A DNA stretch of 61,338 nt, the filler included, from Sphacelaria rigidula (taxonomy: Eukaryota): NCBI GenBank assembly GCA_964200075.2. It is 8 parts of 8 records of this genome, joined end to end, with 100 filler letters (N's around TTAATTAATTAA, not from the genome) between each part and the next. Parts side by side here need not be neighbours in the genome. Positions count along the whole stretch, not along the records: positions 7,681 to 15,260 come from CAXNAA020014240.1; 7 more parts are not named here. The stretch is one strand, 5' to 3'. The first letter of the stretch is position 1. The number at the start of each line of letters is the position of its first letter. This document shows, piece by piece, positions 7,581-53,759 of the stretch. The notes under the pieces were generated by a model. The model did not search any database. It was not told the origin of the DNA and saw only the letters and a list, made by a program, of their open reading frames with translations. A program made the translations under genes and the position numbers.

Positions 7581-7680
7581 NNNNNNNNNNNNNNNNNNNN
7601 NNNNNNNNNNNNNNNNNNNNNNNNTTAATTAATTAANNNNNNNNNNNNNNNNNNNNNNNNNNNNNNNNNNNNNNNNNNNN
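7581..7680. other. Artificial contig linker (N-TTAATTAATTAA-N)
   Basis: 100-bp N spacer with a six-frame stop cassette. Confidence 0.98.
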
Positions 7681-9165
7681 AAACTGCGAAGAAGCAAGTA
7701 CACATGACTCGAGATGAACACCGTTTGTCTCGCCCGAAGCACTCTCACCTCCACTGTGTATCCGAACGGCTGCACGGCGGTCTTCATGACCTCTTCAGCA
7801 GAAGTACCGGGGGCAGGAATCCGCAATGCCGGCGGGGTCGTGTCGACCGGCAGCTTCGACGGGAGCAACTCTGGGCCCACATACACTGCGCCGCCGATAT
7901 CATGCTGTCGAAAAATAGAGGGTGAAAACGAGCCGTTGGCAGTTGGAAAGATTGGTGAAAGTTCATGACACCTCTCACAAACGAAAACCTGTGACACCTA
8001 CATGAAGATCCGCCGCTACGGTAATCGGGGAACACGACTATTATGTTCACACGTCTACCGCCTAGCCGTGGTGTGGCTCTCTGTACCTTGAAGAGCCCAG
8101 AGGAGAATGCTTTATGGAACGTCTTCTCTTCGTGATCAGGCACCTCGCCGGAGAGACTGGCATCTGAGAGAAAGAGCTCGATAGGGCGCCCGCCTTGGAG
8201 GGCGATCTCCAGCCGTTGCGTCCTCTCGAGTCCAACACCAAGGACAGCGTCGCCCATGTTGGTGAACCTTCATGGATATGAAGAGGCAACGACGCTGCAT
8301 TAACGACGCAGAAGTGAGACCTCGCTATCCGCGCGGAGTGGTCGATTGCGAGGTTCGTCGCTCAACGAATGAATGAGCGCTTTTTGTGACACGCACCCTG
8401 ATATAGCAGTACATACAACAACCCGCTTGTCGCGTGACGCGTTGCCTTTCACTCGTATGATGGAGAAAAAACAAGACTCAACAGTTTAGTGATGGAACAT
8501 ATCGGAGGAGAAAGTAGAAAAGGACCGAGTGTACACGGTTTGAAAAACTACCAATCCATACAAATATAGACTATGCCTGAGCCGTCTGATAACATCACGA
8601 AGGGTGGAGTAATGCCTTTCATTAACCACCGGACACGCCATCACCTCCAAACGAAGGTGCGCAACAATCCCGGGGGGAAAGAATTTTCGGGGCCACCGGC
8701 CAGAGCTCCTTGCTTGTACGTCAACATCTCGGTGTGCCCGCCGCCGATCTTCTGCCAGCAGTCTGGCATTTTCCCCCTGATTGTGCTGCCGTAGGGGTCT
8801 TCAAATGTGGCCCTCTGATTCACCGTGAAACATTTCCCCTCTTGCTCTGACCGTTTGTGGGCCACCATGATGGCTTCGTGATGTGGGTAGAAATATATTT
8901 TCTCTTCTCTCTTCCGAGAGCCCCCGTGTTTGCTTGAATATTCGATGAGGATAGGGTCTTCTTCAAGCGCCATGGTGTGGTCTTGAGTGATGGCGTCTGT
9001 GACGTGGTGCAGGCGGGTCGGCGACAGCGAGGGCCGGGCCGGGGTGGGCGGTAGGGCGGGGGGGGGGGCATGGTCTTTTTTTGCTCGCCTTCGCCGTTTG
9101 ACCATTGACCGCGCGACACTCAGCCGGAGCACCGTTCCTACACCTGATGAATAAATACTTCCCAC
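7681..9165 (-). pseudogene. Decayed coding relic, possibly a Mutator-like (FAR1/SWIM) transposase
   Basis: ORF 8641..9165 (IYFYPHHEAIMVAHKRSEQEGKCFTV) loosely resembles a FAR1-type N-terminus. ORF 7784..8257 (FKV...VNIIV...SCRCHRF) loosely resembles the start of a SWIM finger. No DDE core seen. Confidence 0.25.
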
Positions 9166-9445
9166 CTTTCGGAACTCATGATGCTTCTTCCATATATGAC
9201 ACGAAGATTTTACAGACTTTATCCCCTTCCTGCTTCACCTTCTGTGGCCACCATCTATCTCCGAGTGTAGCGATCGTTATCTCGCTACAATTCTAGGTGC
9301 CAAACGATGCCATACCACCTTCATTTAAATCCCGAATTTCCCCCTCTATGTATCGCGTGTGGGGTGGTACCTCTGATTCTATTTCCATGCGGGAACCACG
9401 GCCGCGGCACGGCAAATGCGATCGTCCCCGAAGGATGCAAGGCGC

Positions 9446-10186
9446 TCAGCAGTTTGCCCACGAACCGCTTGAAATGCCCTTCACGTGGTCGTCTGTTTGT
9501 GACAGGATACTTTTCTCGGCATCCAAGGAGACGAGGATGAGCTTCGGCTGGCGTGCCACAGACAGGGGGTCGCCTCCATCGATGAGCTCACACCCTCTGC
9601 GAAGTAGGTTTACCGCGTGCGTGGTAGAACTCTTGCGCCTGTGCGGAAAAACAAAGGCCATTCCACACGGTACATGTCGATATCCCACGGAAGAACGCGA
9701 GTGAAGTGCGATCCTGAGGCAGACAACCGAAGACTTAATCTGCGTGCTTACCTTTCCTGCGCATGCGACGTCTATCACCAGTAGCATCGCATCGACCGTC
9801 ACTGGAAATGCCCTGCTACCGCCTTCGGATGAGCTGGTTGTCCAAATCGTTCTAATGGAACCCAACATGAGGTACTTCCAGGCCATCCGAGTCATGTTAG
9901 ACTTCTCGGCAGGCGTACTGTTGGATTGTACTGTGGCTACAATACGTGACTCAGCTCCCATACCGACAGCCCCTCGATTGACGACAGAACATAACGAATC
10001 TAGTCTAGTTTTCAACACTCTTATCTGAGCATCATTCGACCTACAGACAGCTGTCAGCTCTCGTATAGCGTCCAGTATAGTATGCATGGTAAATCCAACA
10101 TCATCCGAATCGTTCTCATATGACTCCACCGGAGGTTCTGGTACCAAGTTAGACACGAACTCTTCTGTTGGTCTCGGCTCTGCCAT
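9446..10186 (-). CDS. Intronless hypothetical protein (acidic N-terminus plus coiled coil), divergent partner of the TFIIS-ribbon ORF
   Basis: 246-aa ORF with an ATG 30 bp from the ATG of 10217..11818. ILDAIRELTAVCRSNDAQIRVLKTRLDSL shows a heptad pattern. The last ~90 aa may be read-through into unrelated flank. Confidence 0.6.
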   Translation of the reverse strand: MAEPRPTEEFVSNLVPEPPVESYENDSDDVGFTMHTILDAIRELTAVCRSNDAQIRVLKTRLDSLCSVVNRGAVGMGAESRIVATVQSNSTPAEKSNMTRMAWKYLMLGSIRTIWTTSSSEGGSRAFPVTVDAMLLVIDVACAGKVSTQIKSSVVCLRIALHSRSSVGYRHVPCGMAFVFPHRRKSSTTHAVNLLRRGCELIDGGDPLSVARQPKLILVSLDAEKSILSQTDDHVKGISSGSWANC

Positions 10187-10216
10187 AGTTTAGGATTTGC
10201 TGTAGCTGTTAGCTCA

Positions 10217-11818
10217 ATGGTAGACTCAGCAATGAAAGGTGAAGGCAACTGCGACTTGTGCGGAACGAAGCTATCGTCTGTGAGGTTTCAAATTAGATCG
10301 TTGGATGAGGCAGCTACTGAGGTTATGTCATGTCCCGACTGTGGGCCGGCTGCAGCAAAGTTGTCCTCTTACTCACCAGAGAGACGATCTGTCTTGCTCA
10401 ACAGCGTCCTGCTACAACCTATACCTACTCGTAAGCAGTACGAGGACCTACAACAGTCCATCCAAAGCACTGCAATAAGACAGTCGCTGGACCCTACAAC
10501 AGACACTTTCAGATCCACCATTGCAGGTTGGCAATCCCTACAGGTGGTTGTTCTACAAGGCAGGGCATCTTCATCAATCGCTCGCTCACTGAGATTGACT
10601 AGCCGAGGTCGACAACAGGGAGCTGGACGTTACTCTAGGTCCATCTACTCGCCTGTAGACCCTGACAATAAGGTGGGCCTAGTAACAATGGAACACACTG
10701 TGAAAAGGAGACTGAGCAGACTACCAGCAATGGGATTGGCCTACCTTATGTACACAGAGCAAGTGTTGACCACTCTGTCCGATGACGTTCAGGTTCTGTC
10801 TAGACAGAGGGTGGAGCCCACAAGGTGTGCAGGTCATCTATTGAACGATCAGTGGACCTACACAAGGACCGTGAAGAAGGACGTTGCTGACGTTAATGGT
10901 GATGCTTACGATGTAGAGGTCCTGTCCAGTCAAGGTGATGTAATGAGAGCAACACTGACCTATGTGAGATCAACAGTGAGCAGACCCGTCGGATGCAAAC
11001 TGGCTACGGTGTGCTCATGGGCAGCCAATGTCTGCATGTATCTCCGCGTTGATCTCAGAACAGTCGACGAATGTGTAGCCTATGTCGACTACTGTCGGTC
11101 ACTGATAATGACTAGCACCGATGAGTCACTGGTTGTCATATCAGGTGTGGTACACGCATTCCTTCCTACAGTCGGTAAAATCAACCGACAGGGATCTGTA
11201 AGTTCGCTGGGTAGGAAGATTAAGTGGTCTCCCAACGTTACGGACCTACCACACAATGATGGTACGGTATCCATCTACTCGCGATTGGATATTAACAGTG
11301 CCACCGGTATGCCTCAGCTTTCCAGTGCAATTACAGGTGTGTTGGTAGATCATGGTGGAAACATTGCTATCATCGATCATGACAGACAGGTGTACATGAG
11401 TGTATGTGCTAGGGCTGCCCGAGTTCTGCCAGGTCATATATGCTCACCTCTAGCTGACAGCCTGTGCTACACCGGACGGACCACGAATGGTCTGTTGAAC
11501 ACTCTGACATCCAATAGAAAGAGGGCTATAGTCAGACCCGGAGTCACAGTCGAGGACCTAGTCTTCGAGCTGCTATCAGATGAGCTGATCAACATGTCGG
11601 AGCTCACACCGTTGATGCTAGTACTGATGGCCCATGTGAAGTCTCCTCATCTACACCGTGTTGCCAAGAGTATGATGGTACTGCATGGCATGGAGAGAGC
11701 ACCGTCGAAACACACACCCTACCCGACGGGTCATCATTACGTATTTCCGCTTTTATTTTTATTAGCTTGCAGTTATCACCGACTCCCTTTAATGTACGAT
11801 CTCATTGTCTTCACCTGA
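10217..11818 (+). CDS. Intronless 533-aa protein with N-terminal TFIIS-C/RPA12/RPC11-type zinc ribbon; virus- or plasmid-like
   Basis: CDLCG-TKLSSVRFQIRSLDEAATEVMS-CPDCG (10250-10345) matches CxxC...Q(T/I)RSxDE..T....CxxC. The ORF is long, complex and uninterrupted. The last ~35 aa may be read-through. Confidence 0.75.
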   Translation: MVDSAMKGEGNCDLCGTKLSSVRFQIRSLDEAATEVMSCPDCGPAAAKLSSYSPERRSVLLNSVLLQPIPTRKQYEDLQQSIQSTAIRQSLDPTTDTFRSTIAGWQSLQVVVLQGRASSSIARSLRLTSRGRQQGAGRYSRSIYSPVDPDNKVGLVTMEHTVKRRLSRLPAMGLAYLMYTEQVLTTLSDDVQVLSRQRVEPTRCAGHLLNDQWTYTRTVKKDVADVNGDAYDVEVLSSQGDVMRATLTYVRSTVSRPVGCKLATVCSWAANVCMYLRVDLRTVDECVAYVDYCRSLIMTSTDESLVVISGVVHAFLPTVGKINRQGSVSSLGRKIKWSPNVTDLPHNDGTVSIYSRLDINSATGMPQLSSAITGVLVDHGGNIAIIDHDRQVYMSVCARAARVLPGHICSPLADSLCYTGRTTNGLLNTLTSNRKRAIVRPGVTVEDLVFELLSDELINMSELTPLMLVLMAHVKSPHLHRVAKSMMVLHGMERAPSKHTPYPTGHHYVFPLLFLLACSYHRLPLMYDLIVFT

Positions 11819-13793
11819 GCTGTGTTTTGGTTGCGAACACAACTCTTGGGGGGGGGGGGGGGGGGGGGTACATCGGCACATTGTCAAATTCGAAGAATCG
11901 CGGCACAAACAAACCGCAAGTATTATAGGCGTGGAAACAAACACAGTATAGAAGATGACGATATGTTTCGAGTGCTGGGGTCTGATCAAGACCTACGGTA
12001 CTGCCTTACGCCGCCACACCCCTCCCCTCCCCCACCCTGACGTAGGAACACTCTCACGGTGTACACCGAAAGTATGAACGCGACGCAGCCATAGTTGCCA
12101 ACCAATCGGTCGTTTCTCGCGTTGGTGTTCCCGCGGGGGGGGCAAGGGTTATGTGACCAACTACACTCACTGAGAGACACGTGCCGAAAAGATGGCATTC
12201 ACGGGCAACTGTTTTCACACGAGGAAACGCTCGGCTCGATCTGCGATCATCGCACCTTTGCTCTTTCATAGTGGCGCCGGCGGGAGGTCGGGGAACGCTT
12301 GCCTTCCTCGCTTTCTTCCCGCTATTTGATGTGACGCCGTCTCCGGCTGGTGCCTGAGATTCTTTCCTCTTCCGGCGCTCTGGGTCGCCCTCGCACGATA
12401 TGCAAAGGCGCTTTCTTCCCTCGGCCAGAGTCGCATCTTATGAGATAGGGACGAGCAGGTCGCAGAAAGTATGGTGTGCAACCCCGCAGTGCGTGTATCG
12501 GTACCTGTGGGAATGAGGACAGAGGAATATATGTCGGCGGCGAATCGATCGACAGTCTCGCGAGCAATGCCTTCATCGATGGGTGTGTACCTCGGTGCCC
12601 GCCCTCCGACTAGATACTCTATGTGTGCTATTTTCACTCTCACCTGACGTGTAGGGTGGGTTTGCACGACTCGCACACTTTGCCCTCGCGACTACCCGCT
12701 GCTGGGCGGTCCCTGGCCTCCTCACCCTCGCCGTCGGCCTCCCGAACGGATGCGTTGTTCACATCTCCCTCGCCGCCGCTACACACGAGTTTTAAACGCG
12801 CTGTCTTGTCGTTTATCGCGTTCCATTTTTTTCTCCACGTTTCGCTGAAAGACTTGAGGGTCCCTCTTTGTGTCATCTGCGATCGGGGGTGACGGCACTA
12901 TCTCTGGTATATCAAGTACGAACCAAGATACAGAAGAAGGGACGACCGGCAGCAAGTCTCTGCTTTGTCTCTGGAGTGCAAATGTACGTGGGTGGTGGTG
13001 GTGTTTTACTCTCCTCGACCAGTATTACCGGGAAAGATACAGTTGACTTCCGTGCCTGAGCAGCGACGGCGGTCACTGATCAGCTCGCGACAGCAAATAT
13101 ATGTCTCCACTTTCTTAGGATAAAGTCAACTATCGACGGGGAGCAACGTACCAGCTCCAAGGGCCGTGGAAGTCTTCCCTTGTAGACCGCCTCGAATTCC
13201 TTCATGGTTTCGCCTTCCTGTTCTTCGGCCGGCAGGCTTTCTCTGATATCGTCTTGTCTACGGACGATATGTGGTCCCCCACGAACAGCTGGAAATCTTC
13301 CAACCCGTACGTACCGTTTATCATTTTGTGCACGCCACTGTTCGCAGAAATCGGAATCGAAAACATCGAACGTCGCACCACAGTCTGTGATGGGTCGACT
13401 AGTGTGCAGAGATAGTCACACACACGGCGGCGCATTCTAACGTGGTCTCGATATGGGCAGAGTGCCTTACCTCGGGCGGTGGCCGGGCTACAGATTAACG
13501 GCACTCACTCCTTGAACCTGTCCGTCCAAGCAAGACGAGGGATCACGCTCTCGATTCTCTACACCAGGTTGTGCGCGATTCGGGCGTTTTTGGTGACCCG
13601 ATCCCAATCTTTCGGTGTGAGTGTCATCTTGTTCGCCCTCGAATGTCTGGCGTGGCACGGTCGAAAATCGAGGATGAATGTTGTCTGGGTACCGCCCTTG
13701 GGATCTTTCATGAGCATCGCGATATATTCGAAATAAACACACATCTGCACTCTCCGCCTGTCATATGTGGCCTCGCTCATTCTCGAAAACAGC

Positions 13794-14069
13794 CATCTGC
13801 AATTCGCGACCCCCGGCGTTTATACGGGTCGATATTGTCTTTCCTTTGTCCAAAAAATAAAATGCAACCAACCATCCAACCAACCATCCTCAACCAATCT
13901 TTAATTGATCAAGAATTAATTTTTATATACAGTTTCAAATTATATTCAAAATTCAACCAACCATTCAACCAACCATCCAACCGTCCATCCTCAAGCAATT
14001 TATAATTAAGTAATAACTAATTTTTACATCTGCAATTCGTGACCCCCCGGCGTTTATACGGGTCGATAT
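13794..14069 (+). repeat. Local direct duplication (CATCTGCAATTCG...GGCGTTTATACGGGTCGATAT twice; CAACCAACCAT blocks twice)
   Basis: ~42-bp block at ~13794 and ~14027, with AT-rich sub-repeats between. Confidence 0.7.
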
Positions 14070-15260
14070 CGCCCTCCAGCGATTCCGGTGCAAAAAACTG
14101 TTCATCTCATATTTTGTTTTGCTACGATGACTGAGGTCATACATCCCAACCGGAGAATGCTTTTGTATTTTGATTTTGAAACCTTTTCAATGTTGATGAA
14201 GGTTCCCGAGGTTGGTCCTTTACCAAAAGTCTATCCTCAATTTTGAAAGTAGACTGCTTCGCGCGGAGGTGGGGGGTATGTGTGGTTATACCTTGGATAA
14301 ATTGGTTATGACGGTCTATCAACCAGGACATACCACATGACACACTCTCGTCATCCTTCGGTGCGGCGAATTAATGGAAGATAACTCTAGATTATCACAA
14401 CAAGCGACTGGATGGACCAGCGGTGCATACCTTATGAGCATATTGACGGCGATCAATGCGCTGCGGGTTTGGCGTGTAGATCACTGTAAGCCTTGCTCTT
14501 CAGGTACTTTAGCAAAACACATTTTGCGTCGATACCAGGGTCCGACGTCTGGAACGCCCAGGCAATGACCTTCATTGCTTCCGGTGTAGTGGAGAAGCAG
14601 GCCTTCCGCCAGTGCCGCATCGTCACGAGCGACAGAGAATTCAAACCCAGCTGTTTTCGGTAACAAGGGGGCACCATCGGACCGTGCAGAAAAACATACA
14701 GCAGATGCGGTGAATGTCGTGTTCGCTGCACACTGGATTGTTTCTCGGCGTACGAGTGGGTGGGAGACGCAGTGCACGCGCCGTAAACCGTCCGGCAACT
14801 AGTCTAACCCAATACAAGTGGACTTGACTCGGTTCCGAGATGTAACGTACATGATCCGCAGTGCACATATGATACAATACGACTTGAAACTTCACCCAAT
14901 GCCCACTATCGTCCCCGTGTAATGCAGACCCGGTTTTGTAGTACCCCTTGTTTCACATTCCACTACTCACGTTCGTGAACTCCTTTGCTATTGGTTTCCC
15001 CGTGACGGCATCGCTCCCCGTCCTCTCCTGGACCGAGGTTATGATCCAGACGAATATGTAAAGCTTGTCGTACGTGTTGCGGGGAAACAGAGTTTCGCTG
15101 ACATCGTTTAAAGCTGTTCGAAGGCATACAGGCAGCAGCAACGGTTGACGCGGTTATTATTCTCCGATGTTCAAGACCTGTTTTTCGGAAACATTTCCTC
15201 TCTGACACAGCTGATAACAGTGTTGCCAGAAAAATGAGAACGTATTTTGAAATGAGAATC

Positions 15261-15360
15261 NNNNNNNNNNNNNNNNNNNNNNNNNNNNNNNNNNNNNNNN
15301 NNNNTTAATTAATTAANNNNNNNNNNNNNNNNNNNNNNNNNNNNNNNNNNNNNNNNNNNN
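15261..15360. other. Artificial contig linker
   Basis: N-TTAATTAATTAA-N, 100 bp. Confidence 0.98.
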
Positions 15361-15774
15361 TGGGTGGGGAGGAGGGCGGGGGGGGGTAGCGTCGGGTTTT
15401 GGTGTTTTGGTGGTGGGGGGGGGGGGGGGGGGGGGCGTCCATATTAAGGTCATTTACCATGCCTTCACTGTAGGTCAGGGAGCTGTTTCGGGGTTGAACC
15501 TCATTTTTATGTTCAACTCTATTTATCAGGATCTGCCTTATCGATTGCTCATAGGACCAAATACCCTGGACATTGGACTACATTGTAAAAACAACGCACT
15601 GGGTACAGTACGGAATCTTTTGTCTATTACATGTCCAGGGTGTGCATTAGACTCCTACGAGTATCTTACACAGCTAGGACATTGTCAGTGACGACGATGG
15701 ACATGCGAAACGAAATGGTCCATATTCAATTTACTTGTGGAAACTCTTCTGATTACAATATCCTGTTGTCTTGG

Positions 15775-22940: not shown

Positions 22941-23040
22941 NNNNNNNNNNNNNNNNNNNNNNNNNNNNNNNNNNNNNNNNNNNNTTAATTAATTAANNNN
23001 NNNNNNNNNNNNNNNNNNNNNNNNNNNNNNNNNNNNNNNN
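22941..23040. other. Artificial contig linker
   Basis: N-TTAATTAATTAA-N, 100 bp. Confidence 0.98.
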
Positions 23041-26000
23041 GCAGCAAACCGTCCTTGTTCTTTAACCTACTTTAACACAGCCAGGACATAGACCTGAAAT
23101 AGAGAAACAAACCCTCCTTTCTTTTTCACCTACTGTAACACAGCCAGGCCATAGACATGAAATAGAGAAGCTCACCCTCCTTTGTATTTCAATTACTATA
23201 ACGCAGTCCAGAGATTGACCTGGAATGGAGAAGCTCACCCTCCTTTTGATTTCATCTACTATGATGCAGTCCAAACATTCATCTCAAATAGAGAAGCTAA
23301 CCCTCTTTTGTTATCAATCTACTATAACACAGACCGGACATAAACATGAAATAGGGCAGCGAACCGTCCTTGTTCTTTAACCTACTTTAACACAGCCAGG
23401 ACATAGACCTGAAATAGAGAAACAAACCCTCCTTTCTTTTTCACCTACTGCAACACAGCCAGGCCAAAGACATGGAATATAGAAGCTCACCCTCCCCTTG
23501 TTATCAACTTACGGTAACGCCGTCCGGATGAAAACATGGAATGGAGAGGCTAACCCTCTCTTTTTTTCAACCTACTCTAACACAGCCGGGACATAAAGAT
23601 GAAATAAAGAAACAAACCCTCCTCTTCTTTTCACCTACTATAACATGGCCAGGACATATACATGGGTTAGAAAAGCTTATCCTCCTTGTCATTCAACCTA
23701 CTATAACACAGCCCGAATATAAACATGAATTAGAGAAGCTCACCACCTTTTTTATTCAACCTACTACAACACAGGCCGGATATGAACATAAAATAGAGGA
23801 GCTAACCCTCCCTTTTACTCAACCTACTATAACACAGCCCGGATATAGACATGAAATAGAGAAGCTAACGGTCCTTTTTCTTCAATATTCTATAACACAG
23901 CCAGGACATAGACATGAAATAGAGAAGCTCACCCTCCTTTGTATTTCATCTATTATAACGTAGTCCAGAGATTGACATGGAATAGAGAAGCTCACCCTCC
24001 TTTTGATTTCATCTACTATGATGTAGTCCAGACATTCACCTTAAATAGAGAAGCTAACCCTCTTTTGTTATCAATCTACTGTAACACAGACCAGACATAA
24101 ACATGAAATAGGGCAGAAAACCGTCCTTGTTCTTTAACCTACTTTAACACAGCCAGGACATAGACCTGAAATAGAGAAACAAACCCTCCTTTCTTTTTCA
24201 CCTACTGTAACACAGCCAGGCCAAAGACATGGAATATAGAAGCTCACCCTCCCCTTGTTATCAACCTACTGTAACGCCGTCCGGATGAAAACATGAAATA
24301 GAGAAGCTAGTCCTCCTCTTTCTCCAACCTACTCTAACACAGCCGGGACATAGAGATGAAATAAAGAAACAAACCCTCTTCTTTTTCACCTACTATAACA
24401 CAGCCAGGACATAGACATGAAATATAGAAGCTTACCCTCCTTTCTATTTCGCCTACTATAACGCAGTCCAGACATTGACCTGAAATAATGGAGCTCACCC
24501 TTCCTTTTTATTAACCTACTATAACACAACCCGAACATAGACATGGAATAGAGGAGCTATCCGTCCTCTTTCTTGAACCTACTATAACACAGCCCGGCTA
24601 TAGACATGAAATAGAGAAGTTCACCTACCTTTTTATTCGACCTACTACAACGCAGTCCAGACATTGACCTGAAACAGAGAAACTAACACTCCTTTGAATT
24701 CAACCTACTATAAAACAGACCGGACATAGACATGAAATAGAGAGGCTAACCCTTTCTTTGGATAAACCTACTATAACACGGCCCGGACATAGACATGAAA
24801 TAGAGGAGCTAACCCTTCCTTTCTTTCAACCTACTATAACACAGCCCGGATATAGACATGATATAGGAGAGCTGACCCTCCTTTCTTATCAACCTGTAAC
24901 GCCGTCCGAATGAAAACATGGAATAGAGAAGCTAACCCTCCTTTTCTTCAACCTACTATAACACAGCCGGGACATAAAGATGAAATAGAGAAACAAACCC
25001 TCCTTTTTTATCTACTATAACACAGCCAGGACATAGACATGAAATAGAGAAGCTCAGCCTCCTTTTTATTCAACCTACTATAACGCAGTCCAGACACTGA
25101 CCTGAAATAGAGAAGCTAACCCTTCTTTTTATTTAACCTACTATAACACAGCCCGGACATAGACATGAAATAGAGAAGCTAACCCTTCCTTTTAATCAAC
25201 CTACTACAACACAGCCCGGATATAGACATGGAGTAGAGAAGCTGACCCTCCTTTCTTATCAACCTACTGTAACGCCGCCCAGACACTGACCTAAAATAGA
25301 GAAGTTGACCCTCCTTTTTATTTAACCTACTATAACACAGCCCGGACATAGACATGGAATAGAGAAGCTAACCCTTCCTTTTCATCAACCTACTATAACA
25401 CAGCCCGGATATAGACATGGAGTAGAGAAGCTGACCCTCCTTTCTTATCAACCTACTGTAACGCCGTCCGGATGAAAACATGGAATAGAGAAGCTAACCC
25501 TCCTTTTCATTCCACCTACGATAACACAGTTTGGGTATAGACATGAAATAGAGAAGCCCAACGTCCCTTTCCTCTCACCTGACTGCTGCCGAGATAGCCC
25601 CCCCCCGAACCGGCCAAAAACGTGCACGGAGGCGATGAAACAAATGCCGTTAGAAATGATTTCGTGCTGCACGACGCGACGTATTTGGGCGTCATAGCTA
25701 ATTTCGAACTGCTACACGCCTTTCATTTGTGCGAAATTGCTGCGAACGAGCCCAAACGTCGGGATTGCAGCCGGTTTGTCGTACGGTCTCCGGTGCACTT
25801 TTCGTGCAGGGGCTATCTCGGCATAAGTCACCTACTATAACACAGCCCGGACATAGACATCAAATAGAGGAGCTTACCCTCCTTCATATCTCACCTACTG
25901 TAACACAGCCCGGACATGGACATGACATAGAAAAACAAACCCTCTCTTTTCTCTCACCTACTATAACACAGCCAGGACATAGACATGAGATAGAGAAGCT

Positions 26001-29000
26001 TACCCTCCTCTTTATTTCATCTACTATAACGCAGTCCAGACATTGACCTGAAATAAAGGAGCTAACCCTTCGTTTCTATCAACCTACTCTAACACATCCC
26101 GGACATAGACATGAAGCAGAGCAGCTAACCGTCCTTTTTCTTTGACCTACTATGCCACAGCCAGGACATAGACTTGGGATAGAGAAGCTTACCCTTCTTT
26201 TTATTTCATCTACTATGACGCAGTTCAGACATTGACCTGAAATAGAGGAGCTAACCCTTCTTTTCTAACAACCTACTTTATCACAGCCCGGACATAGACA
26301 TCAAATAGAGCAGCGAACCGTCCTTTTCTTTAACCTACTCTAACACATCCCGGACATGGACATGAAGCAGAGCAGCTAACCGTCCTTCTTCTTTGACCTA
26401 CTATAACACAGCCAGGACATAGACATGAAATATATGAGCTCACCCTCCTTTATATTTCATCTACTATAACGCAGTTCAGACATTGACCTGAAATGGAGAA
26501 GCTAACCCTTCTTTTTTATCAACCTACTATAACACAGCCCGGACATAGACATGGAATAGAGGAGCTATCCGTCCTTTTTCTTGAACCTACTACAACACAG
26601 CTAGGACATAGACATGAAATAGAGAAGCTCACCCTCCTTTTCTTTTCATTTACTATAACACAGCCCGGACATAGACATGGAATGGAGCAGCTTACCCTCC
26701 CTTTTATTCAACCTACTATAACACAGCCAGGATATGAACATGAAATAGAGAAGCCTACCCTCCCTTTTATTCAACCAACTATAACATAGCCCGGATATAG
26801 ACATGAAATGGAGAAGCTCATACTCCTTTCTATTCGACCTACTAAAACACAGCGCGGATATAGACAGGAAATAGAGCAGCTAACCCCACTTTTTCTTGAA
26901 TCTACTATAACACAGCCAGCACATAGACATGAAATGGATAAGCTTACCCTTCTTTTTCTATAACCTACTATAACGCAGGCCAGACATTGACATGACATAG
27001 AGAAGCTAACCCTCCCTTATTTTACCCACTGAAACACGGACTGGACATAGACATGACATAGAGAAGCTGACCCTCCCCTATTTTACCCACTCAAACACAG
27101 ACGAACATACACATGATATATCGAAGCTAACCCTCCCTTTTATTCAACCTACTATGACACAGTCAGGACATAGACATGGAATGGAGCAGCTAACCCTCCC
27201 TTTTATTCAACCAACTATAACAGCCCGGATATAGACATGAAATGGAGAAGCTCATACTCCTTTCTATTCGACCTACTAAAACACAGCCCGGACATAGACA
27301 TGAAATAGAGCAGCTAACTCCGCTTTTTCTTGAATCTACTATAACACAGCCAGCACATAGACATGAAATGGAGAAGCTTTCCCTCCTTTTTCTTTAACCT
27401 AGTCTAACACAGCCCGGATGTGAACATGAAATAGAGAAGCTCACCCTCCTTTTCATTTCATTTACTATAACACAGCCCGGACATAGACATGGAATGGAGC
27501 AGCTTACCCTCCCTTTTATTCAACCTACAATAACACAGCCAGGATATGAACATGAAATAGAAAAGCTTACCCTCCCTTTTATTCAACCTACTATAACACA
27601 GCCAGGGTATCAACATGAAATAGAAATGCGTACCCTCCCTTTTATTCAGCCTACTATAACAGCCCGGATATAGACATGAAATGGAGAAGCTCATACTCCT
27701 TTCTATTCGACCTACTAAAACACAGCCCGGACATAGACATGAAATAGAGCAGCTAACCCCGCTTTTTCTTGAATCTACTATAACACAGCCAGCTCATAGA
27801 CATGAAATGGAGAAGCTTTCCCTCCTTTTTCTTTAACCTAGTCTAACACAGCCCGGATGTGAACATGAAATGGAGAAGCTCACCCTCCTTTTCATTTTAT
27901 CTACTATAACGCAGTCCAAACATTGACATGACATAGAGAAGCTAACCCTCCCATATTTTACCCACTAAAACACAGCCTAGACATGATATATAGAAGATAA
28001 CTCTCCTTTTTATTCACCCTACTATAACAGCCCGGACATAGACATGAAATGGAGAAGCTCATACTCGATTTATTTCACCTACTGTAACACAGCCCGGATA
28101 TAGACATGAAAAAGAGCAGCTAACCCTCCTTTTTCCTCAACCTACTTTAACACAGCCCGGACAAAGAGCCACGAAAAATAGAGAAGCTAACTCTCCTTTT
28201 TATTTTACCTACTATAACCTGCCCGGACATAGACATGAAATAGAGCAGCTAACTGTCCTTTTTCTTCAACCTACTATAACACAGCCAGGACATAGACATG
28301 AAATAGAGAAGCTCACCCTCTTTTTTGTTCAACCTACTATAACACAGCCCGGATATAAACATGAAATAGAGAAACAAACCCTCCTTTTTGTTCAACGTAC
28401 TGTAACACAGCCCGGAGATAGACATGGAATAGAGCAGCTTACCCTCCCTTTTATTCAACCTACTATAACACAGCCAGGATATCAACATGAAATAGAAAAG
28501 CTTACCCTCCCTTTTATTCAACCTACTATAACATAGCCCGGATATAGACATGAAATGGAGAAGCTCACCCTCCTTTTCATTTCATCTACTATAACGCAGT
28601 CCAGACATTGTAATGACATAGAGCAGCTTACCCTCCCTAATTTTACCCACTAAAACACAGACTGGACATAGACATGATATATAGAAGCTAACCCTCCTTT
28701 TTTTCACCCTACTATAACACAGCCCGGACATAGACATGGAATAGAGCAGCTTACCCTCCCTTTTATTCAACCTACTATAACACAGCCAGGATATCAACAT
28801 GAAATAAAAATGCTTACCCTCCCTTTTATTCAACCTACTATAACATAGCCCGGATATAGACATGGAATGAAGAAGCTCACCCTCCTTTCTATACAACCAA
28901 CTAAAACGCAGCCCAGATAGAGACAGGAAATAGAGCAGCTAACCCCCCTTTTTCTTGAATCTACTATAACACAGCCAGGACATAGACATGAAATGGATAA

Positions 29001-30620
29001 GCTTACCCTCCATTTTCTATAACCTACTCTTACACAGCCCGGATGTGAAAATGAAATAGAGGAGCTCACCCTCCTTTTCATTTCATCTACTATAACGCAG
29101 TCCAGACATTGACATGACATAGGGCAGCTAACCCTCCCTACTTGTACCCACTGAAACACAGACTGGACATAGACATGATATATAGAAGCTAACCCTCCTT
29201 TTTTTCACCCTACTATAACACAGCCCGGACATAGACATGGAATGGAGCAGCGAACACTCCTTTTTATTCACCCTACTATAACACAGCCAGGATATCAACA
29301 TGAAATAGAAATGCTTACCCTCCCTTTTATTCAACCTACTATAACAGCCCGGATATAGACATGAAATGGAGAAGATCATCCTCCCTTCTTTTCAACCTAC
29401 TAAGACACAGCCCGGACATAGACATGAAATGGAGCAGCTAACCCTGCTTTTTCTTGAATCTACTATAACACAGCCAGAACATCGACATGAAATGGAGAAG
29501 CTTTCCCTCTTTTTTCTTTAACCTAGTCTAACACAGCCCGGATGTGAACATGAAATAGAGAAGCTCACCCTCCTTTTCATTTCATCTACTATAACGCAGT
29601 CCAGACATTGACATGACATAGAGCAGCTAACCCTCCTTTTTCCTCAACCTACTATAACACAGCCCGGACAAAGAGCCACGAAAAATAGAGAAGCTAACTC
29701 TCCTTTTTATTTTACCTACTATAACCTGCCCGGACATAGACATGAAATAGAGCAGCTAACTGTCCTTTTTCTTCAACCTACTATAACACAGCCAGGACAT
29801 AGACATGAAATAGAGAAGCTCACCCTCTTTTTTGTTCAACCTACTATAACACAGCCCGGATATAAACATGAAATAGAGAAACAAACCCTCCTTTTTGTTC
29901 AACGTACTGTAACACAGCCCGGAGATAGACATGGAATAGAGAAGCTAACCCTCCCATTTATTCAACCTACTATAACACAGCCCGGATATAGACATGAAGT
30001 AGAGATAGATGCTGACTTTCCTTACTTATCGACCTACTATAACGCAGTCGGGATGAAAACATGGAATAGAGGAGCTAATCCTCCTCCTTATTCCACCTAC
30101 TATAACACAGTCCGGACATAGACATGAAATAGAGAAGCCAACCCTCCTTCTTCTTTAGCCTACTATAACACAGCCAGGATATAGAGATGACATTAAAAAA
30201 CTAACCCTCTTTTTTTTCCAACCTACTATTACACAGCCCGGAGATAGACATGGAATAGAGCAGCTTACCCTCCCTTTTATTCAACCTACTATAACACAGC
30301 CAGGATATCAACATGAAATAGAAAAGCTTACCATCCCTTTTATTCAACCTACTATAACATAGCCCGGATATAGACATGAAATGGAGAAGCTCACCCTCCT
30401 TTCTATATAACCAACTAAGACACAGCCCAGATAGAGACAGGAAATAGAGCAGCTAACCCCCCTTTTTCTTGAATCTACTATAACACAGCCAGGACATAGA
30501 CATGAAATGGATAAGCTTACCCTCCATTTTCTATAACCTACTCTTACACAGCCCGGATGTGAAAATGAAATAGAGGAGCTCACCCTCCTTTTCATTTCAT
30601 CTACTATAACGCAGTCCAGA
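23041..30620. repeat. 63-bp tandem satellite (~116 diverged monomers) with higher-order repeats; fills the whole contig
   Basis: Approximate consensus CCTACTATAACACAGCCCGGACATAGACATGAAATAGAGAAGCTAACCCTCCTTTTTATTCAA. Variant blocks recur at 315 bp (23041/23356), 757 bp (23356/24113), ~439 bp (~27217/27656) and ~1.51 kb (28161/29668, 29041/30555). Confidence 0.95.
25581..25829. mobile_element. 249-bp MITE inserted in the satellite, 4-bp TSD ACCT
   Basis: TIRs GACTGCTGCCGAGATAGCCCC / GGGGCTATCTCGGCATAAGTC (2 mismatches in 21). ACCT lies at 25577-25580 and 25830-25833; removing the element restores a monomer. Confidence 0.9.
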
Positions 30621-30720
30621 NNNNNNNNNNNNNNNNNNNNNNNNNNNNNNNNNNNNNNNNNNNNTTAATTAATTAANNNNNNNNNNNNNNNNNNNNNNNN
30701 NNNNNNNNNNNNNNNNNNNN
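30621..30720. other. Artificial contig linker
   Basis: N-TTAATTAATTAA-N, 100 bp. Confidence 0.98.
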
Positions 30721-33165: not shown

Positions 33166-33418
33166 CGAGATGAAAATTGCTCGATTGTTTTCATCGGAAG
33201 GTGATGGATAGCCGACTAGCCTCTAAATGACGAAGGGACATCTCAAGCACTTCACGCCTGTACAGCTGTATCTCCACGGCATGAATATAAATGCTAGCTC
33301 TATGTGACCACGGGTTCGCGAGATCGGACTAATGTGCGGAAATAGTAAACAATATTAATAATCGCTTGTGTGAACTTGTCCGTCTCACCCTCTCACCCGT
33401 CTGTGGTCCACCGTGCAG

Positions 33419-34123
33419 GTGGACGCTCGCGTGCTGTCGTACGTGGAGGAGGTTCGGAAGCTCGGACTGCCCGTAACGCGCGCCACCATTCAGTCGTTCG
33501 GGCATGCCGCTAAGAAAGCCCTACTGGCTTCCTCAAGGCCCACGGTGGAGCCTCCTGCGGCAACACCCCCCAAGACAGCTGCACCAACGAGGGCACCAAC
33601 AACCGCAACACCTCCAACAACACCACCAGCAAGCACAGCAGCAACAGCAGCAGGACACACCAACACAACACCAAAGCCGAAGGCAACGCCGACATCAACA
33701 CCAACGCCAACACCAACAAGGCCAACAACTGCAACAGGACCACCAGCGACGGCGACGACCCAAGACGAGAAGATGAAGAGACTGGAAGCTTTTGGGGCGA
33801 GCGTGAAATGGGCCAAGAATTTCATCGCGCGCAACGGCATGGTCAGCCGCATCCTGAAGCAAGGCGAAGGTGAGGCCGGCTGCGGCGTGGGCGCTGCCGC
33901 CGCCGCCGCGGCGGCGGCAGCAGCGGCGGCCGTTGAGTCAAAGGGCGTGCTGGAGGAAATACGTCAGATGTGCAAGATATCATCCCACTTGCGGGATATG
34001 TTCAACGTCGACGAGACAACAGGTCTCATCGCGTACAAGGTATTGCCACGGCGCACGTACCTCATCAGCGGCGAGAGGGATTGGAAAACGGAGTCGGGTA
34101 CGAAAGGCTCGGGTGGGGAATAA
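33419..34123 (+). CDS. pogo/Tigger (Tc5, CENP-B-like) transposase exon: HTH plus start of the DDE domain, truncated
   Basis: VDARVLSYVEEVRKLGLPVTRATIQ...FGASVKWAKNFIARNG is a CENP-B-type HTH. DMFNVDETTGLIAYKVLPRRTY matches IFNxDETGLFY..LP.RT. Preceded by a pyrimidine tract and CAG acceptor (33416-33418). A stop occurs before the rest of the DDE domain. Confidence 0.85.
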   Translation: MDARVLSYVEEVRKLGLPVTRATIQSFGHAAKKALLASSRPTVEPPAATPPKTAAPTRAPTTATPPTTPPASTAATAAGHTNTTPKPKATPTSTPTPTPTRPTTATGPPATATTQDEKMKRLEAFGASVKWAKNFIARNGMVSRILKQGEGEAGCGVGAAAAAAAAAAAAAVESKGVLEEIRQMCKISSHLRDMFNVDETTGLIAYKVLPRRTYLISGERDWKTESGTKGSGGE

Positions 34124-38300: not shown

Positions 38301-38400
38301 NNNNNNNNNNNNNNNNNNNNNNNNNNNNNNNNNNNNNNNNNNNNTTAATTAATTAANNNNNNNNNNNNNNNNNNNNNNNNNNNNNNNNNNNNNNNNNNNN
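38301..38400. other. Artificial contig linker
   Basis: N-TTAATTAATTAA-N, 100 bp. Confidence 0.98.
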
Positions 38401-38475: not shown

Positions 38476-39200
38476 AAAAAAACAAATAAGAAAGTAGACG
38501 CAGATGAAAAATCACAACACGCGAGTCAAGCGAAACAGAGATAAATAAGAAAGAAGAAAGAGATTACGCATGGCTAACCTCAGAAGATTAGGTGCCGCAG
38601 GTGGCCATTCGAACTTCAGGAGGTGGCACCCGGTTTTCCAACTCGACGCGCGACGTCAAGTAGAAATAAACACAGGGTCCGACTGCGGGCGAGACTTAAG
38701 GCTCCAGATACCGCCAACCAAAGAACTAAGAATCGCAAGGTTCCATCTTTCGGCCTCTCGAGGGACAGCCGCACGTACAAGCATACAAGGTGTATCAAGA
38801 CAAGCACTGCATGACATAACGACACGCCTCATCGGGGCGGTTCACCCCCCACCCCCCCCTTCTCTGGGCCGTCGTAATTGCTGTGCTGTTTAGGCTTCGT
38901 TGGTCTCCCATCTAATCGCACGCAGTCGGCTGGCCTCCTTTTCATCTTCGATGCATTAGACAGTAGGGACAAAACGAAGGCTATACTCGGAGATAGATGG
39001 TGGCCACAGACGGCGAAACAGGACGGGGATAAGATATATGTAGGTTTTGTGTAATGTATGGAAGAAACTTAATGAGCTATGGAAGAAGCGTAATGAGCGC
39101 CGGAATGTTGGAGGTGTCTCTATTAGGAGTAGGAACGGTNNNNNNNNNNGCGCAAACGCCTTTGGCAAGAACAAACGGGGTCCCCCCCCCCCCCCGGTCA

Positions 39201-42200
39201 CTACCTCCCCGCAGAGGGATGTTTGATATGGCTCTCACCTCCTTTAAAATTCGGGAAACTGAACGGGACATACGCCCCTCGTTTGATAAGCACCCTCTCC
39301 TTCTCCTCCTGGGAAATATTGGGCGCTCCCACGATCCCGCGCAATGCTGTCAGCAGCTTCTGCGTGTACATCATGTTGTTCTTCGTGTTGGACTTCAATG
39401 CCGAGCTTCTGCCCTGCGTGTTCGTGGGTTTGATCGCGCCATTCCGGGATGGGATCGTATATACTTTTTGCTTTGTTGCGCCCTTTTTGGTCTTCTCGCC
39501 CAACACGTAACAGGCGATATTATCCTGCAGCTTCTTCTGAGATACTCCGGAGCACGACAGAACGATCGCTGCATGTGGACCACTTAACACTCGCCCGTCT
39601 AGCGCATGCAGAACCTCTGTGCCAGCCGCCATGAAGGCAGGAGTACCGTGTAGCCTCTGATACGCCTGTGTCACGTGGGGTTCACGCTTGAGATATAGCT
39701 CTCTTGCGGGGTTCCGCCCGGCACTTTCCCCGAAGAACAGTTGTTCCTTCACTTCTTGTTCGGCAGCAAGCTTCTCCACCGCAGTAGGGGTCGTCTTTGT
39801 GACGACTTTTTTGAAGAACGTGTTCGCCATCTCCTGCCGCTCGTCGAGCCCCACTCTCGCCCGACTCCTGTTGTCACGCAACGTCACGGAAAACAACTGC
39901 TCCACGATCTTCAAGTCGGATTCCGGCATCTGAGTGATGCTGCGATAGGGTCAGCACTTTTACGGCCTGAGAGTAGAATTGTTAGGAATCCTTCATCTCA
40001 TCCAAAACACGACTTTCGAAATAGGTGAGAGTACGCCAGGGTTTTTCTTCCAATTTGCTAGGGATATCCAGAATGAATTTGCAAACGGGGATATCCTGAC
40101 CCATATTCTTGTGTAGTTTCTAATTTTAGGAACCCCTGAATCAGGCCGGTTTTGGCCCCAAAAGTGCAAACCCTATCGCAGCATCAATCATCTGCGCCAT
40201 GTGCATGAGATGAAGGACCATCAGCCACTGGTAACAGTCCTTACCGGTCACGCAGAATATGGCTGCCATGCGGCGAAGGCCTGCCAGTTGAAGCAGGAAG
40301 CTGCCCGTGCGCAAGCCCGTCCGAAACGCCATGCACGCTGGATAATGGTGAAGAACGAAGCTCTCCCACACCCGGCAGCTCTTGTGGTTTTCTGCACGCG
40401 TCCGAACCCAAGCTCGAATAGAAAGGATGTCTTCCTTCCTCGCATGTATCTTCACCTTGCTCGCTGTGTCGTGGATTTCTTACGTTAACTGCTCACCATT
40501 TTTTATCAAGGGGATCATGATCGTCATCATGTTCGCGACGCCGACCCTCAGCCGCCGTTGCAGCTGCCCCGGTGCTAGGGGGTGCCACTGATGCGGTGTC
40601 GGCTGTGGACTCTGGTCGACTATCACCCGCCGCGGCTGGTTCTGCGCAGTCGGTAGGGGATGATTCCATGCTGACGGCGACCGATGCTTCGGCGGCAGGG
40701 CCGCCTGCCACATCGGCGCTCCCGGCGCCCGCCGGCGCTCTTCCGCTGTCGGCGGTGGAGACGAACTGCACAGGTCCAGATTCTCGGAAGTCTACCAGTT
40801 TCGTACTGGCGTGGAAGACGCAGAATACCGGTGCATCGAGGCCCACGATGTCATGCGTCGCTTCCCAGGAACAATCCTCCCCACGACACATGAACTGCTC
40901 GGTAACTATGAGATCGGAAAGCGGAGGGCACGGCGATCGCAATGGTTGGTGCTGACGACGTTTAATGGATGCGCAGGACCCGGGGCCGCTGTGGTGGGAG
41001 AAGCGGATGCCAGGTTATTATCGAATAAGGTGCCGCTCTCTGCTCATTCCTCATGGGTGATGCGGGGGTGGAGCGCGCACGTTGTTCTCCAGTGGGGGCG
41101 TTCGGCGGTACGGGACTTCCTCCTGCGGCGCCCTGCAGCGGAGCGGCTGACTCCGCGGGGTCTGACACTGGCCCTGAGGCGGCAGCCGCAGCTTCGGCAA
41201 TCGATCCCGCCGCAACCCCAGGATTGGTGTCTTTCACACTGGGTCTACGCTCGGAGTAGTACATGGTCACCGTTTTGTCCCCCATGACTCCGAAGAACAC
41301 GCAGATTGTGTGGTGCGCAACGCGGTAGTTGCTAGCCTCCGATGATTTCCTCCCGTCCAGTCCAAGCGCCTCCGCTACGTACTCTATCCCTACCCCCCAA
41401 TATCGCGTCATGGTCGCCTTCGCCATGTGATATAGGAGATGCCAGTCACCCACGTATACCCGGAGCCATTGGTTTTCGCGGGGGTCGCTCCGAATGAGGT
41501 AGTACATGAACCGCAAGATCTCCTCGTTACCGGCAACCATACACGCCGCAGGCGCGCCCCTCCCACCCACGCGGCGTATATCAGCAATGCGGGCAATCGA
41601 GGCTTTCGAGTCGGCCCAGCTCTTCGTGCTCCCCAACTGCATGAGAAGGTACTTGAACACTTGGGGCTCCCGCTGCATCGTAGGTACTGCCTGCCTCACA
41701 ATTTCAACCGTGCGGCGGAGAGAGGGCTGATGAGGTCGCTGTTGCACAGTGTTGCATATCTTCAAACCACGATTTAAACCCCGACCCCGCGGTGACAGTA
41801 TCCGCCGGGTCAAAGGATCATGCCGCAACTTCGCTGTTGAAAGCCATGCACATCGGCATAATGCGCTGGGCAATCATTCCATATCGACTGCCATTGCTAC
41901 CTCGGGCGTCACCGCCGAAGGCAGCAGATACACGAACTTTTGTCGGTCATCATCTGCAGCCTCCCCAACCCCGCTCACCTCTTTCATCTTGGCGTGGGCT
42001 GTGCCGCCCCTCACCACCGTGTCGAGAATTGCCATAGCCTGATCCCGCTTGCGCCGGTCGCCGACAGTCCGGGCCCGTGCGGCCCCCCTAGCTTCTGTCA
42101 GCCACGATTGGACCTGTCCCAGGCTCACTATTCGCCCCGCCTCAAGGTTCGCTATGACTGTCCCGCGTACTTCTACGACGAAGTACGGGTCGGCAGGGGT

Positions 42201-43814: not shown

Positions 43815-44557
43815 TATTTGACGTTTAATGTGTCAGGGTCGGGGGTTCTTGTGCACATATTTATATTTATATATATATATATATTCCACGCATGCTCACG
43901 TCCTGCGATTGGTTCGAAAGCCACTATCATCGCCTAAAAGAAAGCAGTGAGGAGCGTGCGATCATCACCTTCGATAGCTCGCAGGGTTACTACAAGAGTG
44001 AATTAAAGATGCTCATACCTCGGGATCGGTTCTGGTGTCGTATGTGACGCTCGGTCTACCTCGGGCGGCGTCTCAGCAGGCGTTCGGACGTTACATCCCA
44101 TGAGTTAGCCCTGGGGATCTTCCACACCTGCCGCCAGTGTATGAACAGGGGGGGTGGTCGGGTGGGGAGTTGAATACCAACGCTTCTGATCGAGCGTGTC
44201 ATCCACGCTGCCGTTCTCATGTTCTCGCCTGCTGTGACGACGGAGGTATATGTTCTCTGTCGCTTTTAGCGGTCGCGGCGTCCTATCGTGATACTGAAGT
44301 ATCTCTAAAATCGAGAAGTCGAAATCTATGTCCATGTCAACGCCGGAAATCTCGACCCACGCCATGATTTACTTATTTGATTCCGGGTGTCAGATTACGA
44401 ACTTGAACTCCTTCTCTTGCTCGGGACAGACACTAAGTGCGAGTCGTACATTGGCTTGTGTACAAAGCGAGCCGTCGATTTATTGCGGCCCCGCTGTTTG
44501 CGGGAAGTGATGTAGATACGTCTTCGTCACATTGCTACATACACATTTGTACTCGTA

Positions 44558-45980: not shown

Positions 45981-46080
45981 NNNNNNNNNNNNNNNNNNNN
46001 NNNNNNNNNNNNNNNNNNNNNNNNTTAATTAATTAANNNNNNNNNNNNNNNNNNNNNNNNNNNNNNNNNNNNNNNNNNNN
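45981..46080. other. Artificial contig linker
   Basis: N-TTAATTAATTAA-N, 100 bp. Confidence 0.98.
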
Positions 46081-53659: not shown

Positions 53660-53759
53660 NNNNNNNNNNNNNNNNNNNNNNNNNNNNNNNNNNNNNNNNN
53701 NNNTTAATTAATTAANNNNNNNNNNNNNNNNNNNNNNNNNNNNNNNNNNNNNNNNNNNN
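53660..53759. other. Artificial contig linker
   Basis: N-TTAATTAATTAA-N, 100 bp. Confidence 0.98.

Follow-up and report, generated by a model that had tools for sequence, protein, structure and literature searches.

A gene of 533 codons that opens with the signature of a TFIIS-type zinc ribbon was found in Sphacelaria rigidula (assembly GCA_964200075.2), in a window of 61,338 nt that represents the whole stretch of DNA analysed and consists of repeat-rich eukaryotic DNA. The locus lies within the part running from 7,681 to 15,260 (CAXNAA020014240.1); the parts of the window are not necessarily genomic neighbours, and all positions given here are those of the window. Most of the gene is located in a discrete, low-copy segment of 1,967 bp lodged in a nest of high-copy repeats. 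The explanation that we favour, with a probability of about 0.45, is that this segment is a young fragment of an unclassified foreign or mobile element, bearing a ribbon-led gene whose product may contact an RNA polymerase.

The 533-codon gene and its putative zinc ribbon

The open reading frame (ORF), the limits of which had been given exactly by an initial annotation of the window, is preceded by an in-frame stop 31 codons before its ATG, so that no earlier start exists in that frame. Among the ORFs of the window that start with ATG, GTG or TTG, only two GC-rich ones (646 and 635 aa) are longer. Over this 1.6 kb, each of the remaining five frames contains 27-40 stops, and base use in the core of the ORF depends on the position within the codon, with frequencies of 0.32 (G) and 0.18 (T) at the first position and of 0.30 (T) at the second (chi-square p = 7e-6). 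Because of these interrupted frames and of this periodicity, the ORF cannot be ascribed to chance. It is a genuine, recently intact protein-coding gene, in which the four bases are almost equally used at third codon positions, without codon bias. An internal duplication of the protein was rejected, as the comparison of its N-terminal and C-terminal halves by BLASTP gave an E value of 8.3.

The first 60 residues of the predicted protein carry the features on which the ribbon assignment is built. Residues 12-43 are laid out as C-x2-C, nine residues, Q-I-R-S-L-D-E-A-A-T, four residues and C-x2-C-G. The two knuckles, C12-x2-C15 and C39-x2-C42, are separated by 23 residues, which fits the spacer of about 22-25 residues of the family Zn_ribbon_TFIIS (PF01096). 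When residues 1-60 were scored alone, this family reached 23.5 bits (E 4.8e-5), above its curated cutoff of 21 bits, and the next best of the 16 families listed for the same piece obtained 16.3 bits, that is 7 bits less. The acidic hairpin motif Q-x-R-S-x-D-E, which defines the catalytic paralogues of the family, is complete. Also, a six-frame search with a regular expression detected CxxC...CxxC ribbons at 14 places in the window; a satellite with a 63-bp period (see below) accounts for 12 of these, and only residues 12-43 carry the Q-x-R-[ST]-x-D-E motif. This Q-x-R-S-x-D-E string occurs once more in the window, free of cysteines and probably by chance, near the C-terminus of the frame at 48102-50069.

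The comparison of residues 1-60 with all PDB chains by phmmer placed C-terminal ribbons of RPA12 at ranks 1 and 2 (E 0.0061 and 0.03). The alignment to these chains (7aoc_I and 4c2m_I) contains a single one-residue gap, covers the L-R-S-A-D-E-G-x-T loop and reaches into the second knuckle. Lower among the PDB matches, at E 0.21-1.2, come RPC10, two TFIIS chains and an Rpb9/RPC10 chimera. TFIIS-type ribbons represent 6 of the 17 PDB matches listed, among which the chimera stands for Rpb9 and no plain Rpb9 chain appears. The case for the ribbon is carried by the cut-out domain, which passes its cutoff, together with the complete catalytic-loop motif, and residues 12-43 very probably correspond to a true TFIIS-type ribbon (about three chances in four).

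The remainder of the protein resembles nothing that was searched. From residue ~50 to residue 533, no Pfam family was matched, either by the whole protein or by pieces of 150 aa, and NCBIfam and PHROGs gave nothing usable for the 533-aa protein. The PDB contained no match for the whole protein or for residues 51-494, and the ESM Atlas no usable match for the whole protein or for residues 50-494 (recognition 1800). A word-indexed search of 5.8 billion proteins led to the scoring of 7,996 candidates of near length, none of which reached E<=0.001, and of 1,971 shorter proteins, none passing; with residues 1-60 as query it yielded 22 candidates, none at E<=1. The phmmer search against 1,835,955,588 representative proteins returned 0 matches. 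A single pattern match in viral contigs was not confirmed as a relative, none of the 48 pattern matches in JGI metagenome contigs was confirmed, and tblastn gave no match in a phage genome collection. Within the protein, TFIIS_M, Med26 and RNA_POL_M_15KD gave no Pfam match at E up to 1. The description made by the initial annotation, namely an N-terminal TFIIS-type ribbon with its D-E pair kept, devoid of TFIIS domains I and II and followed by unassignable sequence, agrees with these results, with the reservation that the ribbon is borderline; no N-terminal ribbon of the RPA12/Rpb9 kind was found either. As the phmmer search came back empty, the gene is neither a known phaeovirus gene nor any other catalogued one.

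On the opposite strand, a second ORF of 246 codons diverges from the first one. Its 152-codon core inside the segment also shows codon periodicity (p = 1.6e-4), and nothing usable was found for its product in Pfam, NCBIfam, PHROGs or the PDB. Neither ORF has a second copy within the window (best tblastn E values of 3.7 and 0.31).

A low-copy segment inside nested repeats

Assembled Logan contigs from four public runs (X1, X3, X4 and X5, from two studies) were aligned on positions 8000-13500; some of the public runs containing the window sequence are labelled "algae metagenome". In all four runs, a joint connects position 9730 directly to position 11698, at a depth of 65-1240, and so skips exactly the 1,967 bp of the segment. 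Many copies of the flanking repeat are therefore devoid of it. The summed k-mer depth was about 1e3-2e5 over 8000-9839 and 11680-13500, whereas it was 56-258 across seven bins at 10024-11311 in X1, X3 and X4; values in the thin run X5 were lower still. Where a contig is identical to the window, its depth was ~35 (X1), 16-23 (X3) or 13-17 (X4), similar to that of the contigs from paralogous copies. This contrast in depth indicates that the ORF region is single- or low-copy and that its flanks occur in hundreds to thousands of copies.

Two further joints enclose the first one (Table 1), the outer in all four runs and the intermediate, from 9110 to 11847, in 2 of the 4. Such nested joints place the segment in the innermost layer, which would also be the youngest. 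The right junction is crossed by one X1 contig (11000-11766, 1 difference). The dinucleotide composition of the segment departs from that of its surroundings. Its observed/expected (o/e) ratios are 0.68 for CpG, 1.35 for TpG, 1.29 for CpA and 0.88 for TpA, compared with 1.02 and 1.12 for CpG and 0.65 and 0.78 for TpA in the two flanks, and all 2-kb windows outside the satellite have a CpG o/e of 0.83-1.17. The segment thus looks compositionally foreign to the DNA around it.

Neither reading frame meets a stop inside the segment; the stops come 39 codons (533-codon ORF) and 94 codons (246-codon ORF) farther, in the repeat. Beyond the edges, no periodicity was detected in the read-through tail of the larger ORF (p = 0.96) or in the flank part of the smaller one (p = 0.49), in a test that is weak because the tails measure only 118 and 282 nt. 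This suggests that the coding signal ends at the edges of the segment. The left flank is open in several frames regardless, so that the read-through on this side is not informative. As neither frame is closed before the edges, where the coding signal also seems to end, the segment is most likely a fragment of something longer.

The same species contains relatives of this fragment. Inside 9729-11696, 21 contig pieces were listed that differ from the window by 7-19 % (81-93 % identical). These are paralogous loci located elsewhere in the genome of the same species; there are several of them, and they form a small family. The alignment is free of gaps in 16 of the 21 pieces, a count that may be inflated if the aligner breaks alignments rather than opening gaps, and this scarcity of gaps suggests that the frames are kept in the paralogues. 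Three pieces stop aligning at 9729 and five at 11693-11696, with 150-460 nt of unlike sequence beyond. These shared end points do not prove that the paralogues have the same ends, because longer relatives necessarily stop aligning where the present copy ends. By our own estimate, a dead copy drifted by several per cent is expected to gain several stops. The intact frame of 494 codons speaks for a young copy or for selection acting on the family.

Other observations concern the repeats themselves. The hyper-abundant piece of ~70 bp in the left arm is probably a very abundant miniature element, and positions 9166-9288, which include it, recur in inverted orientation at 38963-39085. Runs of poly-G or poly-C (10-22 nt) recur at repeat boundaries (9045-9071, 11847-11873, 15391-15430, 45914-45953 and 56761-56770); in aligned contigs they yield joints that go backwards and may be mistaken for circles. 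Joints of this type, from 11871-11872 to 9077-9081, were considered as possible tandem or circular copies and rejected, as the poly-G runs present at both places explain them better. Closing the segment into a circle was judged uninformative. One frame then crosses the closure without interruption, but the stretch that it gains is simply the antisense frame of the other ORF, and the second frame meets a stop after 16 codons.

Table 1. Coordinates of the features described at the locus, in window positions.
Feature	Position	Strand	Remarks
ORF, 533 codons + stop	10217..11818	+	ATG 10217, stop 11816-11818; codons 1-494 in the segment, codons 495-533 read-through into the flanking repeat
Putative TFIIS-type four-cysteine ribbon, residues 12-43 (C12, C15, C39, C42)	10250..10345	+	Pfam PF01096 and PDB matches
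Acidic-loop motif Q25-I-R-S-L-D30-E31	10289..10309	+	Corresponds to the catalytic hairpin in TFIIS, RPA12 and RPC11; aligns to RPA12 L-R-S-A-D-E
Spacer between the two divergent start codons, 30 bp	10187..10216		Sequence
Divergent ORF, 246 codons	9446..10186	-	Codons 1-152 in the segment, remainder read-through into the flanking repeat; no family match
Discrete low-copy segment, 1,967 bp	9731..11697		Boundaries ambiguous by 2 bp (AG); innermost layer of the nest
Left arm of the receiving high-copy repeat	9111..9730		Depth 1e4-2e5; joint 9110->11847
Hyper-abundant piece of ~70 bp	9219..9288		Highest depth of the aligned region (up to ~2e5 summed); in every run, loose ends sharply placed at either border
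Right arm of the same high-copy repeat	11698..11846		Ends at a poly-G run; depth ~1.2e4 in X1
Outer nest, 4,567 bp	8294..12860		Inserted in another repeat; joint 8293->12861 (skips 4567) in 4/4 runs

Origin of the segment and competing explanations

We propose that the parent of the segment was a longer unclassified element, which may have been viral, plasmid-like or an unknown type of transposon. A piece of 1,967 bp of this parent would have been the last to insert into a very high-copy repeat nest of the algal nuclear genome, probably joined by end-joining at a microhomology of 2 bp. It would carry the 5' parts of two orphan genes, transcribed outward from the 30-bp spacer. The ribbon, being of the TFIIS/RPA12/RPC11 type, could enter the secondary channel of a multisubunit RNA polymerase, either that of the host or that of the parent element, and the orphan part of ~450 residues behind it might serve as an anchor, as a second activity, or as both. 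Insertion in the secondary channel appears as the most likely mechanism because the ribbon resembles the D-E-bearing catalytic ribbons of RPA12, RPC11 and TFIIS. Overall, we give a contact between the ribbon and a polymerase roughly one chance in three. A more specific version, in which the parent is a DNA virus of algae or a plasmid-like element, not yet described, and the protein a new class of factor for the secondary channel, made of a catalytically competent N-terminal ribbon and of a ~450-residue anchor or second activity with a new fold, and acting on the host Pol I, II or III or on a polymerase of the element, seems improbable to us.

Several observations weigh against the proposed origin and role, some of them at the level of the ribbon and others at that of the element. 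Over the whole protein, PF01096 scored 19 bits (E 0.0013), below its 21-bit cutoff, and many ribbon families matched at 12-16 bits. The Pfam scan took in all 282 stop-to-stop ORFs of at least 75 aa of the window, with thresholds of E 0.01 or 0.001, and produced two other sub-cutoff matches at E < 0.001, both in junk ORFs; as similar matches arise in such ORFs, an E value of about 1e-3 proves little by itself. In the PDB, C2H2 fingers scored near RPA12 (ZBTB24, E 0.031; a consensus finger, E 0.089), and MAT1 and LIM fingers were in the same score range. AlphaFold2 run without alignment gave no ribbon fold: for residues 1-70 it predicted helices at 29-66 and no strands, at low confidence (mean predicted local distance difference test score, pLDDT, of 58.8), and its model of the whole protein had a pLDDT of 36.0; both models are too poor to weigh against the ribbon either. 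Also, one X3 contig fails to align over 10094-10273, a region that covers the first cysteine pair.

The whole-protein score, the many matching ribbon families, the C2H2 fingers and the AlphaFold2 models also speak for a first alternative, according to which the protein of a mobile element or virus begins with a generic C4 ribbon that binds nucleic acids or proteins, a feature shared by many transposases. The loop motif would then be coincidental, or the relic of a captured host exon of RPA12, RPC11 or TFIIS, and would have no polymerase role. An architecture that is the reverse of that of every known TFIIS-type protein and that includes no anchoring domain points in the same direction, and by our own arithmetic chance alone may bring a four-cysteine ribbon and the loop motif together a few times over ~250,000 sequence windows. 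However, residues 1-60 do pass the curated cutoff, well ahead of the next ribbon family, and the distance from the loop to the second cysteine pair equals that of the aligned RPA12 chains, the one-residue gap being situated upstream. Moreover, the only motif-bearing ribbon out of the 14 of the window is precisely the one that opens a real ORF. We consider this first alternative as unlikely.

At the level of the element, no inverted repeats were found at the ends of 9731-11697, 9111-11846 or 8294-12860, and these three nested boundaries showed no terminal direct repeats and no target-site duplication. No Pfam match to an RNA polymerase, PolB, helicase, capping enzyme, capsid, integrase or reverse transcriptase was obtained among the 282 ORFs, which leaves the 61 kb without a polymerase or viral hallmark. 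Among the contigs listed, none crosses the left junction, and the right one is crossed only in X1, possibly the source sample of the window. The weakness of the periodicity test on the tails and the possible inflation of the gap-free count, both mentioned above, have to be added to these points.

The 1,967 bp could otherwise be the internal coding region of an autonomous transposon that is ended by the flanking repeats. The empty form would then be an amplified internal-deletion derivative (Ac/Ds-like), and the 533-aa protein a transposase or an accessory protein. Such a relationship would account for a breakpoint that is the same in the four runs, for an empty form that is commoner than the filled one, for the continuation of both ORFs into the flanks before a stop is met, and for the very high number of copies of these flanks. 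Nevertheless, the tails of the ORFs are devoid of codon periodicity, and the left flank is open in several frames in any case. There is an abrupt shift of composition at the edges, beyond which the paralogue contigs continue into unlike sequence. Neither inverted nor direct repeats were found at the termini 8294/12860 and 9111/11846, and domains of the DDE, HUH, tyrosine-recombinase and reverse-transcriptase types are missing from the matches. An autonomous transposon is in our opinion quite improbable. As for a family of host genes restricted to this lineage, perhaps domesticated from a mobile element and located in repeat-rich DNA, of which this copy would be intact or recently decayed, it would explain the low copy number, the approximately single-copy depth of the paralogue contigs, the frames apparently kept and a periodicity typical of coding sequence, but we hold it for very improbable given the exact empty site, which denotes a recent insertion into the repeat, the dinucleotide signature unlike all of the window except the satellite, the flat base use at third positions, and the presence of another orphan ORF only 30 bp away in head-to-head orientation, an arrangement that is unusual among the nuclear genes of a repeat-rich eukaryote.

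Established classes of elements were also considered for the segment. A cut-and-paste DNA transposon is not supported, as there is no terminal inverted repeat, no target-site duplication (only the 2-bp AG ambiguity) and no transposase domain. Helitrons end in 5'-TC and CTRR-3' and insert between A and T; the ends of the segment fit this rule in neither orientation within the 2-bp ambiguity, and no Rep or helicase match was found. A long terminal repeat (LTR) or long interspersed (LINE) retrotransposon finds no support in view of the absence of reverse transcriptase and integrase matches, of direct terminal repeats and of poly-A at the ends. CRESS-type Rep/Cap elements, intron-generating elements and Cryptons were dropped, none of their defining features being present. 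An endogenous virus region of the Nucleocytoviricota type is not supported by its hallmarks, since the 282 ORFs include no major capsid protein, PolB, RNA polymerase subunits, packaging ATPase or VLTF3, and no relative was found in viral contigs. The initial annotation had suggested a component of an autonomous transcription system, belonging to an uncharacterised virus or to an element resembling a linear plasmid. A foreign or mobile origin does fit a recent, discrete and compositionally distinct insertion. The idea of an autonomous transcription system is not supported, with no RNA polymerase, PolB, helicase, capping enzyme or capsid in the window and a segment of 2 kb at the ends of which both genes are apparently cut. 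Its other suggestion, an effector docking on the polymerase of the host, gained no support from the data and was not contradicted by them.

Some features of the rest of the window deserve mention. The sole family above its curated Pfam cutoff is HTH_Tnp_Tc5, at 33374-34120 on the plus strand (24 bits for a cutoff of 22.2); this Tc5-transposase helix-turn-helix is a remnant of a pogo/Tc5-like transposon. No RNA family was found in the window at Rfam gathering thresholds. The region 22980-30000 is occupied by the large satellite of period 63 bp, with at least ~80 registered copies that are 60-88 % alike; it is AT-richer (GC ~0.41), with a strong negative GC skew and a CpG o/e of 0.40-0.68, and, when translated, it gives recurrent CxxC...CxxC strings resembling zinc ribbons. 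Two consecutive open frames (361 + 232 codons) without Pfam match lie at 50750-52557 (+), the second of which contains a C-x2-C-x4-H-x4-C knuckle and a basic tail as in retroelement Gag proteins; no reverse transcriptase or integrase was found nearby. At 40962-43832 (-), a single stop separates two adjoining in-phase frames, of 652 and 303 codons. Together they amount to ~955 codons with a GC content of 0.58 and no family match, and could stem from an orphan gene, decayed or read through, that belongs to another element. The frame at 48102-50069 (+), of 655 codons and rich in Ser, Thr, Pro and Ala, shows codon periodicity (p = 9e-18) and no family match. Lastly, pairs of 44-N runs recur every 7,680 bases (7581-7680, 15261-15360, 22941-23040, 30621-30720, 38301-38400, 45981-46080 and 53660-53759; also 39140-39149) and look like a masking or tiling artefact rather than biology.

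Relation to known polymerase factors and significance

With the C-terminal ribbon of RPA12, RPC11 (RPC10), TFIIS and archaeal TFS, residues 12-43 share the two CxxC knuckles, the Q-x-R-S-x-D-E-x-x-T loop and, as measured on the RPA12 chains, an equal distance from the loop to the second knuckle. To our knowledge, all characterised catalytic ribbons of the TFIIS type are C-terminal and belong to small polymerase subunits or cleavage factors. Here the ribbon is N-terminal, and neither a TFIIS domain II with its linker nor an N-terminal RPA12/Rpb9 ribbon is present as an anchor. Compared with RPA12, the first hairpin is one residue shorter and ~490 residues of unmatched sequence follow the ribbon; the score is borderline, and the likeness is one of sequence only. 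At the domain level, the ribbon would count as a borderline member of PF01096. At the protein level, the predicted architecture, with the position of the ribbon reversed and the anchoring module absent, places it outside the TFIIS/RPA12/RPC11/Rpb9/TFS group.

Ribbons of this type have been put to other uses. Archaeal TFS4 is a TFIIS paralogue turned into an inhibitor of RNA polymerase in a virus-host setting, according to two reports (PMC5715097; PMC8448823). It illustrates that a TFIIS-type ribbon can be reused as a plug of the secondary channel beyond RNA cleavage, which is the kind of role that we suggest for the 533-aa protein. In contrast to TFS4, which has lost the acidic loop residues and has kept the two-ribbon architecture of TFS, the 533-aa protein keeps the D-E pair in a wholly different architecture and shows no sequence relation to TFS4 beyond the family ribbon. 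Baculovirus LEF-5 likewise has a TFIIS-like ribbon without TFIIS domains I and II, in a viral protein, and matches weakly over residues 20-43. Baculo_LEF5_C (PF11792) scored 12.8 bits on the whole protein and 13.7 bits on residues 1-60, for a cutoff of 24; moreover, the ribbon of LEF-5 is C-terminal and the rest of LEF-5 is unmatched. An identification with LEF-5 was rejected, with this sub-cutoff score and no other LEF-5 match.

Concerning the setting, endogenised giant-virus DNA (GEVEs) has been described among transposable elements in Euglena and microalgae (PMC12455990). The features shared with GEVEs as presented in that source are foreign-looking DNA, close-packed genes on two strands and orphan genes, among transposable elements of an algal nuclear genome. 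The differences are the size of the segment, which has only 2 kb and two genes, the lack of viral hallmark in the 61-kb window and the lack of relative in viral contigs. In the titles and opening lines of abstracts that were covered, no relevant literature on an N-terminal TFIIS ribbon in transposable elements was found. With modest confidence, the S. rigidula gene may be regarded as a known module in a new architecture and in a new setting.

If the ribbon were only a generic zinc module, the gene would be one more orphan in a repeat nest and of local interest only. If it is real and functional, an N-terminal channel factor would be the reverse of every known architecture of the TFIIS family. 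The lack of relatives among 1.84 billion representative proteins would then flag an unsampled family of elements. Selfish elements or viruses of algae would thus reuse a module of the polymerase pore in a new way, possibly for hijacking, inhibiting or proofreading transcription, or for tethering another activity to the polymerase.

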